Assembly: GCA_965116325.1 (NCBI GenBank)
Contig: OZ220675.1
Coordinates: forward strand, 833,536 to 897,535
DNA: 64,000 nucleotides
Origin: Dehalococcoidia bacterium
GTDB taxonomy: Bacteria > Chloroflexota > Dehalococcoidia > Lucifugimonadales > JAGWBF01
Direction of reading: 5' to 3'
Positions 6,224 to 18,530 of this stretch are shown here, piece after piece (the stretch's first letter is position 1; every line of letters starts with the position of its first letter). A program made the position numbers and the translations under genes. The notes below the pieces were generated by a model. That model did not search any database and was not told where the DNA came from. It saw only the letters and a list, made by a program, of their open reading frames with translations.

Positions 6224-7063
6224 ATGGCGGACCGCACCAGTGTCGGAGATGTGGAAATCCTCTCTTTCATCGACATGGTCCCCCCACCCTACGACCCGGA
6301 GGGGTTCTTCCCCGACGTGAAACGCAGCCAGTGGCAGCCTTATGAGTCCGACCACCTGGAGAACGGCAACTTGCAGCTCTACTACGGGTGCTTCGCCCTC
6401 CGCTCCAGCGGCCAGACCATCCTGGTGGATACGGGGATGGGGCCCGGGCCCCATCCGACCCGCGGAAACCTGACGGGCCATCTAGTGCCCCTTCTAAGGG
6501 AACAGGGTATCGGGCCCGAGGATGTAAACATTGTCGTGCACACCCACCTGCACCCTGACCATGTGGGCTGGAACGTAACCCAGGAAGACGGGAAGCCCAA
6601 GGCCACCTTCCCCAAAGCCAGGTACCTTGTGCCCCGCAAGGACTGGAGCTACTTCACCCAGGAAGATGTCCTGGCATCGGCCGCCCACGTCCGGGACAAC
6701 GTGGTCCCCCTGCAGGATTTGGGAGCCATGGACATCATCGACGAGGAACACACCATCACCTCCGAGGTCACGACCATACCCACGCCGGGGCACACGCCGG
6801 GCCACCTCAACGTCCTGATCTCTTCAGGCGGGGAGAAAGGCATCCTGGTTGGCGACCTGCTCCACAGCAAGGTACAGGTGCAGGAGCCGGCTTGGTGCTC
6901 CAGGGCGGACATCGACAAGGCCACCGGCCAGCGCAGCCGGGAGGATATGCTGGAGCGCATCGAGCGCGAAGGGATGCTGGTGGCCGCGGGCCACTTCAAA
7001 CCCGACGAGCACTTCGGTCACGTCGTACGCATCCAGGGCAGGCGCTACTGGCAGGTCCTCTAG
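6224..7063 (+). CDS. MBL-fold metallo-hydrolase
   Basis: HxHxDH motif VHTHLHPDHVGWN, later TPGHTPGH and a C-terminal His/Asp ligand region. Confidence 0.85.
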   Translation: MADRTSVGDVEILSFIDMVPPPYDPEGFFPDVKRSQWQPYESDHLENGNLQLYYGCFALRSSGQTILVDTGMGPGPHPTRGNLTGHLVPLLREQGIGPEDVNIVVHTHLHPDHVGWNVTQEDGKPKATFPKARYLVPRKDWSYFTQEDVLASAAHVRDNVVPLQDLGAMDIIDEEHTITSEVTTIPTPGHTPGHLNVLISSGGEKGILVGDLLHSKVQVQEPAWCSRADIDKATGQRSREDMLERIEREGMLVAAGHFKPDEHFGHVVRIQGRRYWQVL

Positions 7064-7081
7064 GGGCCTGGGGCAGGCGAC

Positions 7082-8494
7082 CTACACCGGCGGGCGGCGC
7101 TTGTGCCAGTCGGTGGCTTTCTCGTAGGCGTGAGCGGCCCTGAGTACCGTGCTTTCGTCGAAGGGCTTGCCAGCAAGCTGGAGACCCATGGGCAGGTTGT
7201 CGTCGGAGAACCCGCAGGGCACCGTGATGGCGGGAAAGCCGTTCAGGTTGAAGGCGCGCGTGTACTGGGTCAGCGCCGGGACGGAACCCACGGTGACGTC
7301 GTTTATCTGCACCTGGGTAGCCCCGATGGGATGGGCCGTCATCGGCTCCATGGGCCCCGCCAGCAGGTCCACCTCATCGAACAGCTCCCGGCACTTCCGG
7401 GTGAACATTGCCCTGGCCCGCTGGGCCTGGAGGTACTGCTCGCCCGAGATGAAGAAGCCCGACTCGATGCGCAGGCGCACCGGCGCTGCGTACTGGGCGC
7501 CCTTGGACAACACCAGGTCTCGGTGGTAGGCTGTCGCCTCCGAGTACAGGATGGTTGTGGACAGGGGAGCCGTCTGGTGAAACATAGGCATGGAGATCTC
7601 TTTGACCTCAGCCCCCATCTCGCCTAACTGCTCTATAGCTTTTCGCACCGCCTGCTCCACCTGGCTGTCCACGGGCACCTCGAAATACTCCTTGGGTACG
7701 CCTATTCTCAGGCCTTTTATGTCCCCCGTGAGGCCCTCGGTGAAATCGGGCGCCGGAACGTTGGCCGATGCCGGGTCCATGGGGTCGTAGCCCGCCAGGG
7801 CATTCATCACCAGGGCGCAGTCCTCGACGGTGCGGCACATGGGGCCAGCATGGTCCAGGGACCAGGCAAGGACGCTGATGCCGTAGCGGCTGATGCGGCC
7901 ATAGGTGGGTTTCAGTCCGGCCAGCCCGCACAGGGCGCTGGGGATGCGTATGGACCCTCCGGTATCCGAACCCATGGTTAGGGTGCATTGCCCGGCCGCG
8001 GCCGCTGAGCCCGATCCCCCGCTGGAGCCTCCGGGAATCAGGTCGATGTTCCAGGGGTTGTGCATGTTGCCGTAGTCGGGGTTCTCCCCCGTCGGGCCGA
8101 AGGCGAACTGGTGCAGGTTCAGCTTGCCGATGAGGACGGCGCCCGCCCGACGAAAACGGTTGGCCACCGTGCAGTCGTAGTCGGGAACGAAATCGTCGAA
8201 TATGCGCGAGCCCGATGTGTTCCTGACCCCCCGGACGTAGTACAGGTCCTTCAGGCCCAGGGGGACGCCGTGGAGCGGCCCCCTGTAGGTGCCGGCGCTC
8301 ATCTCCAGCTCACACTGGCGGGCGGCCGCCCGTGCTTGGTCGGCCATGACGGTTATGAAGGAGTTCAGGGTAGGCTCTGTGGCTTCTATCCTCTCCAGGT
8401 GGGCTTCAACAACCTCCCGGGGGGATACCTGCTTGGACTTGATGAGCGTGGCTAGCTCGCCTGCGCTGCTGTAGCAAATCTCGATATTCTCCAC
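7082..8494 (-). CDS. amidase (amidase-signature family, GatA-like)
   Basis: Amidase signature GGSSGGSGSAAAAG...GSDTGGSIRIPS and an upstream catalytic Lys region (PLGLKD). Confidence 0.9.
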   Translation of the reverse strand: MENIEICYSSAGELATLIKSKQVSPREVVEAHLERIEATEPTLNSFITVMADQARAAARQCELEMSAGTYRGPLHGVPLGLKDLYYVRGVRNTSGSRIFDDFVPDYDCTVANRFRRAGAVLIGKLNLHQFAFGPTGENPDYGNMHNPWNIDLIPGGSSGGSGSAAAAGQCTLTMGSDTGGSIRIPSALCGLAGLKPTYGRISRYGISVLAWSLDHAGPMCRTVEDCALVMNALAGYDPMDPASANVPAPDFTEGLTGDIKGLRIGVPKEYFEVPVDSQVEQAVRKAIEQLGEMGAEVKEISMPMFHQTAPLSTTILYSEATAYHRDLVLSKGAQYAAPVRLRIESGFFISGEQYLQAQRARAMFTRKCRELFDEVDLLAGPMEPMTAHPIGATQVQINDVTVGSVPALTQYTRAFNLNGFPAITVPCGFSDDNLPMGLQLAGKPFDESTVLRAAHAYEKATDWHKRRPPV

Positions 8495-11070: not shown

Positions 11071-11865
11071 TTACGCCACGCCGGCTTTGACACCCCGGAA
11101 CAGCTCGTCGGCTTCCTCGGCGGTGCCGCCCTCGTGGACGATGTAGCGGATGGCCCGGATCATGGCCACAGGCGCGTCATTCTGCCAGATGTTCCGCCCC
11201 AGGTTCACACCTATGGCGCCCCTGACCATGCCGTCGTGCACAAATTCGAACACCTCCCGCTCTGTGTCCACCTGGGGCCCCCCGGCCATGATGACCGGCA
11301 CGGGACAGCCCTCCACCACCTTTTCGAACTCCTCGCACCAGTAGGTCTTCACCACCTTGGCCCCCAGCTCAGCCGCGATGCGGCAGCACAGGCCCAGGTA
11401 GCGGGCATCCCGCTTCTCCATCTCGCGGCCCACGGCCGTCACCGCCATCACGGGGATGCCGTACCGCTCCCCCTCGCTGACCAGGGAAGACAGGTTCAGG
11501 AGGTTCTCCTTTTCGTAGTCGGACCCGATGAACACCGAAATGCCCACCGCCGATGCGTTCAGGCGGATCGCCTCCTCCATGGGTGTGGTGATGCCCTCGT
11601 TGGCCAGGTCGTTGCCCACCATGCTGGTCCCGCCGGACACGCGCAGGACGATGGGCTTGGCCTTGGCGGGAGGAATGGCGGAGCGGAGGACTCCCCGGGT
11701 CACGAAGACGGCATCGGAGTAGGGCAGCAGGGGTTCCAGGGTCTGCCAGGGGCTCTCCAAGCTCCTGGTGGGTCCCTGGAAATAGCCGTGATCGATGGGC
11801 ATGAACAAGCATCGGCCATCGGAAGGAATCACCTGGGCCAGCCGGTTCTCCATTCCCCAGTCCAT
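11071..11865 (-). CDS. class I aldolase, DhnA/FbaB/LsrF-type (DeoC/LacD superfamily)
   Basis: MPIDHGYFQGP opening and a Schiff-base lysine context AAELGAKVVKTYW, typical of archaeal-type class I FBP aldolase / ADH synthase / LsrF relatives. Confidence 0.85.
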   Translation of the reverse strand: MDWGMENRLAQVIPSDGRCLFMPIDHGYFQGPTRSLESPWQTLEPLLPYSDAVFVTRGVLRSAIPPAKAKPIVLRVSGGTSMVGNDLANEGITTPMEEAIRLNASAVGISVFIGSDYEKENLLNLSSLVSEGERYGIPVMAVTAVGREMEKRDARYLGLCCRIAAELGAKVVKTYWCEEFEKVVEGCPVPVIMAGGPQVDTEREVFEFVHDGMVRGAIGVNLGRNIWQNDAPVAMIRAIRYIVHEGGTAEEADELFRGVKAGVA

Positions 11866-11964
11866 CGGTGCAGCACCCCCTGTCTGTGATATGGGCCAAG
11901 TATATCAGCAGGCCCAAGGTGTGTCTTGGTGCCTTCCCCTCCCTTGACTGGAGAGGGCTGGAGT

Positions 11965-12091
11965 GAGGGTGACACCCCTCATCCTAACCTTCTCCCACCA
12001 GGGGCAATTTCTTCCCCCCTCCCTCGAGGGAGGGGATTCAGGGGAGGGTGTAACCCCCCTCATCCTAACCTTCTCCCACCAGGGGAGAAGG
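11965..12091. repeat. intergenic repeat/palindrome cluster
   Basis: Two copies of GAGGGTG(N3-5)CCCCTCATCCTAACCTTCTCCCACCAGGGG (11965-12004, 12044-12085). They flank a perfect 20-bp palindrome CCCCTCCCTCGAGGGAGGGG (12016-12035). The second copy closes into the CCTTCTCC/GGAGAAGG hairpin. Confidence 0.7.
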
Positions 12092-12097
12092 CATTTG

Positions 12098-12853
12098 CTA
12101 CCCGGACGGCAGCGTGAACTCCACCACCATGCCCGGCGCCAGCTCCAGCTCGGCGGCGAGTCCGGCGTTGACCTCCACAGCGTACTGGGCGGGTGAAGTG
12201 GAGCGGTATAGCGTGAGCTGGCCGGTGGGAACTCCTGGCTGGGGGTGCATGGTGTGGATGTTGACGATGCGGCGCTCCTGGTCCAGGAACATGATGTCCA
12301 AGGGTATCAGGGTCTCTTTCATCCAGAAGGACAATGTGGACTCCTGGGAGAAGACGAAGAGCATCCCGCCGTCGGGGGACAGAGATTCGCGGTTGGAGAG
12401 CCCGCGACTACGCTCCTGGGGGGTTATGGCCAGCTCCAGGATGAAGGTCTCCCCGGCGATGATGGCCTGCACCGAGCCCTCGGGAATTGGGGTCGGAGTG
12501 GGAACAGGCGTGTCGGTAGGTTCAGCCGTGGGCGTGTTCGTTGGAACGGCTGTGGGCACAGTTGTGGGCGTCGGCACGGGGGTCGGTGAGGGAATCAACG
12601 TGGCCGTGGGCGTCGGGGTCGCTGTGGGGGCATACGTGGGCGTAGCCGAGGGAGTTGCCACGGGAGTCGGAGCATCTGTGGGCAGAGGGGTTGGCGTAGG
12701 AGTAGCAGGAATGGGGTGAGCTGTCTCTGTCGAAGGGAGCGAAACCCCCGTAGGGTCTTCGACATCCATGGCGCCATGCCCACAGGCTGCGACAACGACG
12801 ACCACTGCCATCGCCAAAGCGAGGCTGGCAAGAGAGCGCATCAGCCTAGGCAA
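12098..12853 (-). CDS. DUF192 domain protein with signal peptide and Pro/Thr-rich linker
   Basis: C-terminal [30 protein letters not shown]...YAVEVNAG matches the DUF192 pattern. N-terminal [24 protein letters not shown] is lipoprotein-like, followed by PTPTP repeats. Confidence 0.8.
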
Positions 12854-12903
12854 TTTGGGGGGAGCAGGGGTGGCATTGGTGATCTATAGGACACCGATTT
12901 GCT

Positions 12904-13707
12904 TTATCTGATTAGGGGTCTAAGTTTTTCAAGTTCTGCCGAATAATTGATGGTCTTGAATCCATGAAGAACAGCTACCATGAATGGCGGATAGAGCAAT
13001 GTGTAACTCATCTCGTCCACCGATGAGCCAAGAGCATTCGCCCCCTCGGCGGCCATTTCAGATTTATGGGTCCAGCCTGGAACCGCCTCTTGCAGGAATC
13101 CATAAATGTTCCTAAACAGGCGGGAAACCTTAGCTCTGGGTTCTCTAGACGATGCGTCTTTCGTTCCTGTTGACAGATACGAATTGGTTTCCAACAAGTT
13201 CTCTATGTTTTCCAACCCAATCTCTCTCGAATCTCCATATTCCGAGGTACGCCTGTCGTATAACCCTAACACGTCTTCGACCGCGGATTTCACTTCCTCG
13301 TCATCATTCCAATGAAACGAAGCTCTGACGAGTTTTCTGAAGCCTGCTCCCACGGAACTATCAACCACTAAGTCTCGCGATTCGCTTCCTAAGAGTGCAA
13401 AGGAATAGTAGTCCAAAAGGTGCAGGTAAAAGCAGTAGAACTCGCAACGCAAAAGGAACACACATTCCGGATCCAATTGAAGATTCCAGTGTGCCCCGAG
13501 GGACTCCACAAGGGAGTCACTCGAGGTGCGAGTTGCATTAGCTACCTTGAGATTCAGGTGGATCAATGCCTCAACGAGCCCTTCCACTCCATTGCCTAAG
13601 TTGCGAGGCACACTTTGCTCTCGCTGTCTTTCCACCTGTTTGGTTGCAGCCTCTTCCGGGTTGAAGAGTGACTGAACGATCTGTCCCAGATTTCGAAAAA
13701 CCCCCAA
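12904..13707 (-). CDS. hypothetical protein (267 aa)
   Basis: Long ORF in about 50% GC DNA (spot count), same strand as the three upstream island genes. No motif recognised. Confidence 0.5.
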   Translation of the reverse strand: MGVFRNLGQIVQSLFNPEEAATKQVERQREQSVPRNLGNGVEGLVEALIHLNLKVANATRTSSDSLVESLGAHWNLQLDPECVFLLRCEFYCFYLHLLDYYSFALLGSESRDLVVDSSVGAGFRKLVRASFHWNDDEEVKSAVEDVLGLYDRRTSEYGDSREIGLENIENLLETNSYLSTGTKDASSREPRAKVSRLFRNIYGFLQEAVPGWTHKSEMAAEGANALGSSVDEMSYTLLYPPFMVAVLHGFKTINYSAELEKLRPLIR

Positions 13708-13893
13708 AGCTCACCTCACTCAGTAAACATTTGCCAGCATACTCATTCTGACGTCGATTTGGCCATGTCGAGTCATCTAAAGCTGATCGCATATATTTGG
13801 GTTTCGGATTACACACCAGCCCATTTAACATCGTGTCCAGATACCTCGAACGAAGCTAGTGGGGAGGCCCCGGTTGCCTTCTGCGCTGTCTGG

Positions 13894-14481
13894 TCAACGC
13901 GTGATGCGGGAAGAATCCTCTTTTGCACCCAAATAGGCGGATACCATTCCGGTCCGTGTCTCGCCTCCCGAATCCATAACTACAACGGTGCGGCCTGTCG
14001 AAAGCAGTTCCTCGATATCGGACTTTACAGCTTCCTGCGTACCTGGGGGAAATGTGTTTTTCTTACCAAAATCATAAGTAGGGTGTTCCTTAACCACTAT
14101 ACCAAGTCCCTTATGATGGCAATTTAGCCACTCTTCAAACGTCAGACGATTCTTGCGTTCCGAGCAATCGTCGAAACCTCCGCAGAAACTATAGAAGGAG
14201 AATTCACTAGTCCCTTTAGCATCCTTCTTTTGGCCCAGAAGGGAGACTATTGCGATACTGGAGCCGCAATGTTCAGAAAGGCCAAGAACCCAAGAATGAA
14301 CGGCAGCGTCACTCACCTTCGCAATTTTGCTGCGTTCGCATGCCGACCTCCCCGGCCTTGCACAGGTGAAGAAATGGGAGACCCCCTTTGGGGTGTCCAC
14401 TTTCCATCGCTTGAGTCTGTAAGGTTTCTTGGGCTTAACGCCGGGAAGCTTAGTGCGCCTAGCATAACTTCTACTTGGCAC
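13894..14481 (-). CDS. dual-specificity/tyrosine phosphatase-like protein with Asp in place of the catalytic Cys
   Basis: Layout resembles bacterial DSP-like phosphatases: ARPGR..., IAIVSLL, general-acid-like HPTYDFGKKNTFPP, and P-loop position RTVVVMDSGGETRTGMVSAYL (expected VHCxxGxxRTG). Start lies 23 nt after the stop of the upstream gene. Confidence 0.5.
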   Translation of the reverse strand: MPSRSYARRTKLPGVKPKKPYRLKRWKVDTPKGVSHFFTCARPGRSACERSKIAKVSDAAVHSWVLGLSEHCGSSIAIVSLLGQKKDAKGTSEFSFYSFCGGFDDCSERKNRLTFEEWLNCHHKGLGIVVKEHPTYDFGKKNTFPPGTQEAVKSDIEELLSTGRTVVVMDSGGETRTGMVSAYLGAKEDSSRITR

Positions 14482-14504
14482 ATCACTCCCTTACAGGTTA
14501 TCAG

Positions 14505-15623
14505 CTACCGGACCTTCAGAGTACCGTCATAATTGTCCCACTCTGTAACCAGTCTTTCCGGTAACGAAAACACCACGCAGGTAAGACCATAACTACCATA
14601 GCACCACTTTTCTTCATCGAAGAAGGTCACAATTCCCTTTGGCGTGCCTTGGACGTGTAACACATCGTCCTGGGAAGAACCTCTAGTGAAATACCCTTCA
14701 GTTGTCGGTTCACTGGTCGATGGCAGCAGTAGGACCTTCAGAGTACCGTCGTAATTGTCCCACTCTGTAACCAGCCTCTCTGGTAAAGAGAACGTCACAC
14801 AGGTAAGACCATAACTACCGTAGCACCACTTTTCTTCATCGTAGAAAGTCACAATTTCCTTCGGCGTGCCTTGGACATGTAACACATCGTCCTGGGACGA
14901 ACCTCTAGTGAAATACCCTTCGGTTGTCGGTTCACTGGTCAAAGGCAGCAGTAGGACCTTCAGAGCACCGTCGTAATTGTCCCACTTTGTCACCAGCCTC
15001 TCTGGTAAAGAGAACGTCACGCAGGTAAGACCATAACTACCGTAGCACCACTTTTCCTCATCGTAGAAAACCGTAATTTCCTTCGGCGTTCCCTGAACAT
15101 GCTGCACAACATCTTGCGAGGACCCTCGGGTGAAGTAGTCCTGCCCCAGGACAGGTATTGGTGTCGGGGTAGGGACCGGCGTTGGTGTGGGTGTTGGGAT
15201 GGGGGTCGGCGTTGGCGTGGGTGTGGCAGTCGGTAGGGATGCGATACGGGTAGCCTCCTGGCTCCTGGCATACCTTTCCGCTTCCTGCTGCACTTCTATG
15301 GCTGACCGCGTGACCGCCTCCTCCAGCTCTTTTTGTCTCTGAACGGCGTCAATGGCTGCCCTGGTGGCGGCGATGTCCGGGGTGGGCCCGATGGTGGGAA
15401 AGGGAGCTGATGTTGGTATTGGAGCACGGGTCCCAACTGAGTCAGATAAGGCTGCTACTGGCACCGCACCTGCCCGCCTCACAATCGCCGGGGTCGAGAT
15501 GGGAACAGGAGTCCTTGTCGGCAGCAAACTGACGCTGCCAGCGCCTCCGCCATCTCCATTACCGTCTCCACTCCAGTTGGATGCAGCTACCATCACAATT
15601 GCTATGACAACAGCCACGCCCAC
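14505..15623 (-). CDS. membrane-anchored Pro/Thr-rich protein with three tandem 74-aa domains (probably the C-terminal part of the J-domain gene upstream)
   Basis: Hydrophobic N terminus GVAVVIAIVMVAAS, TPTPTP linker, then 3x GYFTRGSSQDDVLHVQGTPKEIVTFYDEEKWCYGSYGLTCVTFSLPERLVTEWDNYDGTLKV. The listed GTG start lies inside a TM helix and lacks a well-spaced SD. Confidence 0.7.
   Translation of the reverse strand: MGVAVVIAIVMVAASNWSGDGNGDGGGAGSVSLLPTRTPVPISTPAIVRRAGAVPVAALSDSVGTRAPIPTSAPFPTIGPTPDIAATRAAIDAVQRQKELEEAVTRSAIEVQQEAERYARSQEATRIASLPTATPTPTPTPIPTPTPTPVPTPTPIPVLGQDYFTRGSSQDVVQHVQGTPKEITVFYDEEKWCYGSYGLTCVTFSLPERLVTKWDNYDGALKVLLLPLTSEPTTEGYFTRGSSQDDVLHVQGTPKEIVTFYDEEKWCYGSYGLTCVTFSLPERLVTEWDNYDGTLKVLLLPSTSEPTTEGYFTRGSSQDDVLHVQGTPKGIVTFFDEEKWCYGSYGLTCVVFSLPERLVTEWDNYDGTLKVR
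14508..15143. repeat. 222-bp tandem repeat, about 2.9 copies, in-frame inside the CDS
   Basis: GGACCTTCAGAG(T/C)ACCGTC recurs at 14510, 14732 and 14954 (period 222 = 74 codons). Copies are about 90% identical by eye. Confidence 0.85.
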
Positions 15624-15659
15624 TACAATGGCTATTGTCCTTGGGACACTGGTTTCTCC

Positions 15660-15992
15660 TCATCCCGGAAACGTTACTGGGGGTGGTGTGCGAGGAGGGG
15701 GTGGAGGCGACGCCCCTGTGTTTGACGCTCGGCGGGCACGATGGTCGTCTGGGGCTTCAGTTTCCTCTCGAACCTGGGCAGTTCGCCGGCGGTCGTATGC
15801 TCCACGTAGGTCGGGGTCGCTTAGAGTCCCATATGCAAGGTTCAGCCGCGTCATGATCTCGGCGGCCTCTTGCGACGGGTTGACGTCGGGATGATACAGC
15901 CGGGCGAGCCTCCGATATGCCGATTGAATTACGTCAGGATGGGCTGACGGATGGACCTGAAGAATTTCGTACAGGTCTTCAAGATCAGCCAA
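15660..15992 (-). CDS. J-domain (DnaJ-like) protein, ends at an in-frame TGA
   Basis: DLYEILQVHPSAHPDVIQSAYRRLARLYHPDVNP ... GTLSDPDLRGAYD with the HPD motif, then a Pro-rich tail. TGA at 15660-15662 is in frame with the next ORF 12 codons downstream. Confidence 0.85.
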   Translation of the reverse strand: MADLEDLYEILQVHPSAHPDVIQSAYRRLARLYHPDVNPSQEAAEIMTRLNLAYGTLSDPDLRGAYDRRRTAQVREETEAPDDHRARRASNTGASPPPPPRTPPPVTFPG

Positions 15993-16035
15993 ACTTGGTC
16001 ACCTCAATTCACGAGTTGGTTCGAGCCATCATAAC

Positions 16036-16069
16036 AAAAACCGGGCCCTTATCAGGCCCGGCTCTTTTT
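16036..16069 (-). terminator. intrinsic terminator-like hairpin (bidirectional shape) ending the 16S-trailer/TA transcription unit
   Basis: CCGGGCC (16041-47) / GGCCCGG (16055-61) with a 7-nt loop. Flanked by AAAAA (16036-40, which gives UUUUU after the hairpin on the minus strand) and TTTTT (16065-69). Confidence 0.5.
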
Positions 16070-16132
16070 GTGTGTGCTCCTTAGCCTCTGGATAGTGGAA
16101 GGAGAGGTGTTTTATCCGTTGGGAATCGGTGG
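16056..16132. repeat. direct repeat copy A (distal duplicate of the 16S trailer segment)
   Basis: 77 nt, 74/77 identical to 16782-16858, with the first 58 nt identical. Contains a second copy of the processing-stem 3' strand (16070-16109). Confidence 0.9.
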
Positions 16133-16145
16133 CTGAGCCCGCCGG

Positions 16146-16493
16146 CTACTGGGGGCGGATCCTGACTCGCCCCGGTTCGGCACTGACCAGGGTGCCGTAG
16201 CGAATCTCCCCACCATAACGGGACAGCACCATCAGGCATGCGTCCGCCTGTTGCTCAGCTCGCCAGTTCACTAGGCGAATGATTCCCGCGTGGGGCATCC
16301 CATGGAGGACTGCCAGTTCACCGAAATCTTTATCGAGGGTAACCAGCACTCGTCCTTCGTCCAAGGCACGCGCCATGATTTCGGCATCGGAGACATTCTC
16401 CGGCCACTCACCAGCCCATACGACATCGTGTCCAGCAGCCACCAGCGAATCACGCGACCCTCCCCATACACAGGCATCCAGCAATAGCCTCAC
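16146..16493 (-). CDS. PIN-like (DUF5615 / Mut7-C type) putative toxin
   Basis: MRLLLDACVW...DAEIMARALDEGRVLVTLDKDFGEL is the usual DUF5615 PIN-like pattern. Starts 3 nt after the DUF433 gene stop. Confidence 0.75.
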   Translation of the reverse strand: MRLLLDACVWGGSRDSLVAAGHDVVWAGEWPENVSDAEIMARALDEGRVLVTLDKDFGELAVLHGMPHAGIIRLVNWRAEQQADACLMVLSRYGGEIRYGTLVSAEPGRVRIRPQ

Positions 16494-16496
16494 CGG

Positions 16497-16739
16497 CTAT
16501 TCGACCACAAGGGATTCGATGCGCTCGCGTCCCACTATCCTGCGGGCGTAGATGAGACAAGCCTGGATATCCTCAGCTTCCAGCCAGGGGTATCCACCGA
16601 TGATGGTCTCGGGAGTGCTGCCGGCAGCTAGCATATCCAGAATGTGTTCGACTGCCAGTCGCCTACCCCGGACGATAGGCTTACCCTCGAAAATCTCGTG
16701 GTTGATAGTGATTCTTTCCAGTAACTTGCCTTCATCCAT
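16497..16739 (-). CDS. DUF433 domain protein, putative antitoxin
   Basis: ITINHEIFEGKPIVRGRRLAVEHILDMLAAGSTPETIIGGYPWLEAEDIQACLIYA matches the DUF433 pattern. DUF433 is the canonical upstream partner of DUF5615 genes. Confidence 0.75.
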   Translation of the reverse strand: MDEGKLLERITINHEIFEGKPIVRGRRLAVEHILDMLAAGSTPETIIGGYPWLEAEDIQACLIYARRIVGRERIESLVVE

Positions 16740-16781: not shown

Positions 16782-16858
16782 GCCCGGCTCTTTTTGTGTG
16801 TGCTCCTTAGCCTCTGGATAGTGGAAGGAGAGGTGTTTTTACCATTGGGAATCGGTGG
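16782..16858. repeat. direct repeat copy B (16S-proximal)
   Basis: See copy A. Offset is 726 bp, and the TA pair is the only content between the copies. Confidence 0.9.
16796..16835 (-). other. 3' strand of the pre-16S leader-trailer (RNase III-type) processing helix
   Basis: On the rRNA-sense strand it reads CACCUCUCCUUCCACUAUCCAGAGGCUAAGGAGCACACAC. This pairs with leader GUGUGCUC...CUGGAUAGUGGAAGGAAAGGU as 8 bp + internal loop + 16 bp + 4 bp. Confidence 0.6.
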
Positions 16859-17008: not shown

Positions 17009-18526
<1,518 letters not shown>

Positions 18527-18530
18527 GAAA

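Follow-up and report, generated by a model that had tools for sequence, protein, structure and literature searches.

A probable mosaic accessory island beside a lone 16S rRNA gene in a Dehalococcoidia bacterium

Introduction

Do genes that lie side by side on one strand, with short gaps and a shared atypical composition, form a functional module, or were they brought together piece by piece? The question is raised by a row of four open reading frames (ORFs) near a 16S rRNA gene in a 64,000-nt stretch of DNA from a Dehalococcoidia bacterium (assembly GCA_965116325.1, contig OZ220675.1, 833,536–897,535 of the forward strand), referred to below as the window. All four ORFs are on the minus strand and code, in order from the 16S rRNA gene, for a 110-aa J-domain protein, a 372-aa protein with tandem repeats, a 195-aa phosphatase-like protein, and a 267-aa protein. 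They are separated by gaps of 36, 23, and 186 nt and bounded by a GC-rich hairpin and a DUF192 gene (Table 1). A preliminary description, in which orientation and gap lengths agreed exactly with the ORF coordinates, put the row forward as an undescribed multi-gene unit coupling a membrane-anchored J protein to the phosphatase-like and 267-aa proteins. We favor a different reading, with a probability of roughly 0.7: the region is a foreign, mosaic accessory island in a recombination hot spot between the lone 16S rRNA gene and a cluster of DUF192, DeoC, and aldolase/dehydrogenase genes, made up of separately exchanged cassettes and a facultative two-gene core.

Results

A variable slot between the 16S rRNA and DUF192 genes

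The slot that holds the row was compared in relatives using the DeoC and 16S rRNA genes as anchors. The order of 16S rRNA, variable cargo, DUF192, and DeoC recurs in several relatives. In three of them (G010, G031, and G006), the 16S rRNA gene lies ~0.4–0.5 kb from DeoC and the slot is empty. A relative with a 99.5% identical 16S rRNA gene (G003) carries 4.7 kb of unrelated cargo, and another (G002) carries only a gene for a J-domain/transmembrane (TM)/repeat protein. The slot of G001 has a toxin-antitoxin pair followed by ~2.4 kb without detectable query genes. In L018, which is closely similar to the G001 locus, the toxin-antitoxin pair is followed by a protease-repeat gene and a phosphatase-like gene, and two further loci (L022 and L080) have a J-TM-repeat gene and then a phosphatase-like gene. 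In the window, a DUF433/DUF5615 toxin-antitoxin pair (16146–16739) sits between the row and the 16S rRNA gene.

The 16S rRNA gene is the only rRNA gene in the 64 kb, and no 23S rRNA, 5S rRNA, or spacer tRNA gene is found in the window. Relatives from several genera likewise have a lone 16S rRNA gene that borders the variable slot. Two copies of a 77-nt segment of the 16S trailer, 96% identical, bracket the DUF433/DUF5615 pair as direct repeats and look like a cassette-insertion scar or a recombination duplication. In G024 (L010/L020, G024:C16), a duplicated 5' fragment (~150 codons) of an aldolase/short-chain-dehydrogenase gene flanks the island with the phosphatase-like gene; the fragment (7939–8367 of L020) and the full gene (11309–13372) suggest insertion into the gene with restoration of its 5' end.

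Decay is frequent in homologous loci. Phosphatase-like genes are disrupted by insertion sequence (IS) elements or truncated in L012 and L016, a copy in G002 (L017, G002:C2:1604727–1605257) has TGA and TAG stops, and the repeats of L081 are frameshifted (6244–6892). These loci often adjoin transposases and toxin-antitoxin or Abi-like modules (HicAB, MNT/HepT, PIN, AbiE-like, and DUF433/DUF5615), and IS elements and recombinases flank homologous genes in other genomes. Directly upstream of a solo phosphatase-like gene in L013 (G027:C2, 6174–7800) is a divergent pair that resembles AbiEi/AbiEii by N-terminal sequence alone.

Atypical composition, absence from close relatives, and flanking direct repeats, all criteria for genomic islands, are found together here. 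The resemblance to genomic islands and plasticity zones covers composition, presence/absence polymorphism, direct repeats, toxin-antitoxin genes, IS elements, and pseudogenes in homologous loci. Unlike those islands, this one is anchored at the 3' flank of an unlinked 16S rRNA gene rather than at a tRNA or tmRNA gene and has no integrase inside.

Composition and coding status of the gene row

The DNA of the row is compositionally foreign. GC content of the row is 0.48–0.52, against 0.60–0.65 in the flanks; in 300-nt windows, it is 0.45–0.52 over ~12,800–15,050, compared with 0.60–0.67 outside, which upholds the earlier remark that this DNA is AT-richer than its surroundings. GC content at third codon positions (GC3) falls to 0.53 in the J domain, 0.59 in the TM-linker part, 0.54 in the repeats, 0.50 in the phosphatase-like gene, and 0.52 in the 267-aa gene, against 0.78 ± 0.07 for a reference set of 34 ORFs of the window (z-scores of −2.7 to −3.9). 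Codon-usage scores of the same parts are 2.5–3.8 standard deviations below the reference ORFs. By GC3, the anomaly covers the whole row and is wider than the dip in plain GC had suggested in the preliminary description. The DUF192 gene is native-like (GC3 of 0.75), and the DUF433/DUF5615 pair, with an intermediate value of 0.63, is partly affected as well. Another stretch of low GC (0.51–0.53) occupies positions 1–2050 of the window, where two plus-strand ORFs (31–939 and 983–2050) have a GC3 of 0.55 and are as atypical as the island.

Ratios of nonsynonymous to synonymous substitution rates (dN/dS) of 0.15–0.42, against 0.06–0.07 for DeoC, show purifying selection and thus that the row consists of real genes. 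Only the J domain passes the Pfam and NCBIfam domain thresholds, so the earlier statement that these proteins have no assigned function beyond the J domain holds. None of the four proteins matched a PADLOC model at E values of ≤1, and a scan of the four against PHROGs returned nothing meaningful.

An interrupted J-domain/TM/repeat gene

The J domain of the 110-aa ORF matches PF00226 with 68 bits (cut-off of 27.8) over model positions 1–63, and its translation has the HPD tripeptide (RLYHPDVNPS). The 110-aa and 372-aa ORFs are in one frame, parted by a TGA codon and 12 sense codons, and a single hydrophobic helix, TIAIVVGVAVVIAIVMVAA, straddles the annotated GTG start of the 372-aa ORF. In the G002 ortholog, which comes from the same genus and a genome with a 99.5% identical 16S rRNA gene, the reading frame is uninterrupted and has Trp (TGG) at the position of the TGA codon (...VTFSGWGEIYVPRTIALIVG...). 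An independent Logan contig from public run X1 (depth 16) is identical to the window over 15300–16000, including the TGA. Because of the Trp codon in G002 and the matching contig, the change is taken as real, neither an assembly error nor a sign of another genetic code: the J-TM-repeat protein is encoded by one gene that was cut by a recent in-frame TGG>TGA nonsense change. An alternative code for TGA was ruled out since the ortholog has TGG and the other ORFs of the window are normal under table 11.

These data also bear on whether the low-GC block could be a chimeric or mis-binned piece of assembly and the TGA a sequencing error. The genome is a metagenome-assembled genome and the shift in composition is abrupt, as an artifact would have it. 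Against this are the exact match of the run X1 contig, the assembly of the genome as a single 2.37-Mb contig, and the finding of the 16S rRNA, variable cargo, DUF192, and DeoC order with homologous cargo in several independently assembled relatives. We consider an artifact extremely improbable.

In the comparison with G002, the J domain has a dN/dS of 0.23 and the part beyond the stop codon has one of 0.42, which indicates that the gene was constrained until recently. As it stands in this genome, the interruption leaves the J domain unjoined to its targeting/client part. A preliminary call of one J-domain/TM/repeat protein was right about the predicted architecture, a membrane-anchored J domain with extracytoplasmic repeats, but the gene is now two ORFs in one frame. 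In its intact form, the protein is predicted from sequence to have a cytoplasmic J domain, one TM helix, and extracytoplasmic repeats. The genome encodes one Hsp70 (a single PF00012 match, 857 bits) and three other J-domain ORFs. A short J-domain open frame (137 aa) lies elsewhere in the genome, at G000:C1:2233078-2233266.

Membrane-anchored type III J proteins such as DjlA of Escherichia coli and TopJ of Mycoplasma likewise combine an HPD J domain with a membrane anchor and are presumed to recruit DnaK to the membrane; DnaK is also encoded here. The arrangement in the window is different, with the J domain at the N terminus, then a single TM helix, and then a large part predicted to be extracytoplasmic, whereas in DjlA the order is reversed and an ectodomain of this kind is lacking. 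NCBIfam scores fall far short of the TopJ and DjlA cut-offs. A literature search on membrane J proteins of Chloroflexi returned nothing specific.

BamE-like repeats and exchangeable N-terminal modules

The 372-aa ORF codes for a partial TM helix, a coiled-coil and Pro/Thr-rich linker, and three 74-aa repeats that each have two Cys residues. At the DNA level, the second and third 222-nt units are 91% and 70% identical to the first (Tandem Repeats Finder, period of 222, 2.7 copies, 91% matches). PF04355 (BamE) is weakly matched by the protein as a whole (26.1 bits, cut-off of 23.2), with no single repeat or stretch above the domain threshold, and a profile of the repeats against the Protein Data Bank (PDB) gave a weak, non-significant match to OsmE (4dm5). 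A link to the BamE/OsmE group (SmpA_OmlA) is suggested by the PF04355 match, which also occurs in precomputed homolog hits, and by a common G.T..QV...GTP motif. The repeats differ from BamE in that they occur in 1–7 tandem copies in a monoderm-type Chloroflexota lineage, while BamE is a single outer-membrane lipoprotein.

A search with the read-through protein identified ~136 relatives in which DnaJ, Trypsin_2/Trypsin, and BamE domains occur in varied combinations, including some with J domain, protease, and repeats in a single chain. Across genomes, the repeat varies in its middle segment and is conserved at both ends, and copies within one gene remain ~90% alike. The N-terminal module is J-TM in the window, G002, L022, and L080, a lipoprotein signal with a trypsin-like protease in L018/L019, and a HEPN-like domain with a TM helix in L023. 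The N-terminal module is exchanged between genomes, and the J domain is not a constant partner. In L066 (G005:C1, ~6300–7466, minus strand), from the same genus, J-TM is joined through a Pro/Thr-rich linker to DUF192, with no BamE-like repeats. Such Pro/Thr-coding linkers may serve as recombination joints for domain shuffling. A polymorphic toxin/immunity cassette was also considered and ruled out, as the repeats are not followed by a toxin domain and the downstream protein occurs widely on its own.

A predicted phosphatase fold with an invariant aspartate

The gene for the 195-aa protein has a GGGAG Shine-Dalgarno sequence 5 nt ahead of its GTG start. Its product matched no Pfam, NCBIfam, PADLOC, or PHROG model and belongs to a family, DX5R, of 115 clusters that are all unnamed. 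When the family profile was searched against PDB sequences, the only match was a non-significant one to an archaeal-type protein tyrosine phosphatase (PTP; E value of 0.74), so a fold search was needed. An AlphaFold2 (AF2) model built from 39 sequences has a predicted local distance difference test (pLDDT) score of 92.6. Its best Foldseek matches are to KAP/CDKN3 (1fpz and 1fq1; best E value of 3.9e-4 for 1fpz, probability of 1.0, TM-score of 0.47–0.52), followed by baculovirus RNA 5'-phosphatase, Tk-PTP, PTEN, PIR1, Siw14, and DUSP23, and nearly all of the top 25 matches are PTP-fold enzymes. A cysteine-phosphatase fold is confidently predicted from this model.

The P-loop of the family reads D-S-G-G-x-T-R-T-G (D-S-G-G-E-T-R in the window copy). 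Asp takes the place of the nucleophilic Cys in all 113 full-length members, Cys is found in none, and the Arg is kept in 112. The protein does not have the CX5R signature of cysteine phosphatases, having Asp for Cys, and its earlier characterization as catalytically altered was correct. Two other motifs are invariant: TCARPGR near the N terminus and PTxD (D137), which by sequence position only falls at the place of the general-acid loop, ~30 residues before the P-loop. The fold and the order of these blocks are common to KAP/CDKN3 and the dual-specificity phosphatases, with a CARPG loop, a central strand, a putative HPTxD acid loop, and a P-loop ending in R-T-G. The family differs from them in its DX5R in place of CX5R, in a hydrophobic residue rather than His before it, and in overall similarity (TM-score of ~0.5, identity of 17%).

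Some receptor PTPs are known to have inactive D2 domains with Asp at the catalytic Cys position, and the C215D mutant of PTP1B has been reported to keep weak activity. A literature search on bacterial Asp-type pseudophosphatases returned nothing specific. The altered site is itself invariant and has invariant polar residues around it, which favors a specific ligand site or a mechanism without cysteine over decay. The dN/dS of the gene is 0.20 relative to its closest relative.

Phyletic distribution and the two-gene core

Of 60 relatives, eight have the phosphatase-like gene and none has the 267-aa gene. Species-representative genomes yielded 41 loci with the phosphatase-like gene, in Dehalococcoidia, Anaerolineales, Chloroflexia, Acidobacteriota, Nitrospirota, Myxococcota/"Deltaproteobacteria," Binatota, Verrucomicrobiota, and Alphaproteobacteria; the GC content of the gene is lower than that of its locus in 34 of them. 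Clustering of neighbors in the 41 loci yielded no recurrent partner of the DX5R gene; what it did return, besides that gene, were antisense shadow ORFs and a few families common to three loci.

A hidden Markov model of the repeat domain revealed a repeat protein ending 10–27 nt upstream of the DX5R gene in just five loci (the window, L018/L019, L022, L023, and L080). In a maximum-likelihood tree, all five linked DX5R copies fall in one seven-member Dehalococcoidia clade (support of 100/97), and the other two members of the clade (L020 and L021) have no repeats. DX5R is solo in a second Dehalococcoidia clade and in every other phylum. Half of the 10 repeat-protein loci (G002, L078, L079, L081, and L082) lack a DX5R gene. 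Judged by this distribution, the repeat gene and the DX5R gene are a facultative two-gene core, for which one ancestral juxtaposition is a sufficient explanation. No terminator-like site was found by pattern search between the J gene and DUF192, which is weak evidence, and a promoter-like site before the J gene, also a weak pattern match, overlaps the hairpin after DUF5615. The two-gene core is probably co-transcribed.

A stronger reading would have the repeat protein and DX5R function together as a genuine pair, forming a transmembrane module for sensing or stress. The extracytoplasmic, fast-evolving BamE-like repeats would bind a ligand in the envelope or outside the cell, an exchangeable N-terminal module (a J domain recruiting DnaK, a protease, or a HEPN-like domain) would act as effector, and the cytoplasmic DX5R protein would be partner or regulator, possibly in a toxin-antitoxin/defense neighborhood. 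The close spacing in five loci despite differing N-terminal modules speaks for such a pair, as do the difference of the variable repeat segment across genomes while copies within a gene stay alike and the richness of surrounding loci in toxin-antitoxin and Abi genes. However, the confinement of linked copies to one clade needs only one juxtaposition followed by inheritance, half of the repeat-protein loci do without DX5R, DX5R is solo in Acidobacteriota, Nitrospirota, Myxococcota, and the second Dehalococcoidia clade, and PADLOC gave no match. We regard a functional pair as unlikely. Less likely again is the boldest version, in which a repeat protein with an exchangeable effector and the invariant-Asp DX5R protein would form an undescribed envelope-sensing or defense-type two-component module of Dehalococcoidia, with DX5R a true enzyme that works on the PTP fold without a catalytic cysteine.

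A separate cassette with the 267-aa gene

A word-based search with the 267-aa protein returned only a 40-residue N-terminal match, on contig L061. A full phmmer search found 24 representatives (best E value of 2.8e-24, 25%–35% identity, ~230 aa) that align to residues 42–267, which makes the ORF a genuine gene. Its family is rare and occurs in 3 of 401 genomes from the class. AF2 predicts an all-helical protein (pLDDT of 85.6) with no fold match in the PDB or among BFVD viral structures (best E value of 0.3, TM-score of <0.3), and a Pfam scan of the family gave nothing. No member of the family occurs among the ~80 loci that hold other island genes. The gene is preceded by the 186-nt spacer and its own Shine-Dalgarno sequence.

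Contig L061 covers the end of DUF433 and the first 33 codons of DUF5615 and then leads straight into a homolog of window positions 13856–13601, which comprise the spacer and the first 40 codons of the 267-aa gene. Beyond this segment, it continues into a different 274-aa body and then DUF192. The matching junction in the window is marked by a pair of 44-nt repeats, which are joined into one in L061 and here bracket the block of DUF5615, J domain, repeats, and phosphatase-like gene. This junction and the 44-nt repeat mark the 267-aa gene as an independent cassette with its own upstream region, outside the conserved pair.

These results bear directly on the idea that the membrane J protein, the phosphatase-like protein, and the 267-aa protein are one functional operon, a three-component module. 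Co-orientation, short gaps, a common atypical GC3 and codon usage, and the lack of a terminator-like site between the genes are what such an operon would show. Its third gene, however, is absent from the other J-repeat and DX5R loci and from the 60 relatives, has a 5' region that travels with another gene body in L061, and is set off by a spacer and ribosome-binding site of its own; the J domain, for its part, is swapped for other modules in relatives and is interrupted here. The model is largely refuted by the phyletic pattern and is very improbable. Of the unit proposed in the preliminary description, the three-gene module fails, given that most phosphatase-like genes are solo and half of the repeat-protein loci have none; what co-occurrence across genomes leaves standing is the repeat and phosphatase-like pair of five Dehalococcoidia loci.

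Table 1. Positions of features in the window, listed from the 16S rRNA gene to the DUF192 gene
Feature	Position	Strand	Evidence or remark
16S rRNA gene	17012–18527	−	Rfam RF00177, 1511.7 bits; upstream anchor of variable locus
77-nt direct repeat, copy 2 (16S trailer segment)	16782–16858	.	96% identity, spacing of 726 nt
DUF433 antitoxin-like gene, 80 aa	16497–16739	−	PF04255, E value of 8.8e-21
DUF5615/PIN-like toxin-like gene, 115 aa	16146–16493	−	PF18480, E value of 5.6e-17
44-nt direct repeat, copy 2, within 5' part of DUF5615	16406–16449	.	77% identity, spacing of 2595 nt
77-nt direct repeat, copy 1	16056–16132	.	Overlaps last six bases of hairpin and promoter-like site
GC-rich terminator hairpin	16041–16061		Pattern match
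Promoter-like site	16055–16028	−	Pattern match
J-domain ORF, 110 aa; HPD motif and Pro-rich tail, ends at TGA	15660–15992	−	PF00226
In-frame TGA just before membrane helix	15660–15662	−	Frame identity, G002 ortholog, independent contig
TM-remnant/linker/repeat ORF, 372 aa from GTG	14505–15623	−	PF04355 (BamE), whole-protein score
Tandem 222-nt repeats coding for 74-aa repeat	14510–15175	−	Tandem Repeats Finder and repeat search
Protein with predicted phosphatase fold, 195 aa, DX5R P-loop	13894–14481	−	AF2, Foldseek, family alignment
44-nt direct repeat, copy 1 (DUF5615 5' remnant), in spacer upstream of 267-aa gene	13811–13854	.	
Predicted all-helical protein, 267 aa, rare uncharacterized family	12904–13707	−	phmmer, AF2
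DUF192 lipoprotein-like gene	12098–12853	−	PF02643, E value of 7e-30; downstream anchor of variable locus

Discussion

Several points weigh against a foreign, mosaic island with an interrupted J gene and a merely facultative core. No integrase or transposase was found within the island (12.8–16.9 kb) in the ORF list or by Pfam. Low GC3 could come partly from weak expression rather than foreign origin. The spacing of 10–27 nt, kept despite heavy shuffling, could reflect real functional coupling of the two core genes. Finally, low-level readthrough of the TGA by tRNA-Trp might occur, and the J gene may not be fully dead. Exchange is proposed to proceed by recombination, whether homologous or illegitimate, at short repeats and at linkers that code for Pro/Thr.

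The mosaic island, which we still prefer after weighing these points, would consist of three cassettes. The first is the DUF433/DUF5615 pair within its duplicated 16S trailer. The second is the two-gene core of a membrane J-repeat protein, broken here, and a cytoplasmic DX5R protein. The third is the unrelated, predicted all-helical 267-aa gene with its own upstream region. An intact membrane protein would hold the single DnaK of the cell at the membrane, under an envelope-binding repeat array. With an invariant TCARPGR loop, a putative acid-loop Asp, and a nearly universal P-loop Arg, the DX5R protein most likely works on its own, binding phosphate esters or weakly hydrolyzing them, and its gene would simply be the distal one of the transcript. 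The 267-aa protein would act independently of both.

For this lineage, a false lead is removed, in that there is no three-gene machine to look for, and the flank of the unlinked 16S rRNA gene would serve as a site of exchange for accessory cassettes. The DX5R family, with ~115 clusters in soil and groundwater phyla, would offer either a natural test of a Cys-free PTP scaffold or a conserved bacterial pseudophosphatase. Membrane J proteins of Dehalococcoidia with large extracytoplasmic parts, made of repeats and sometimes a protease, would link DnaK to the cell envelope.

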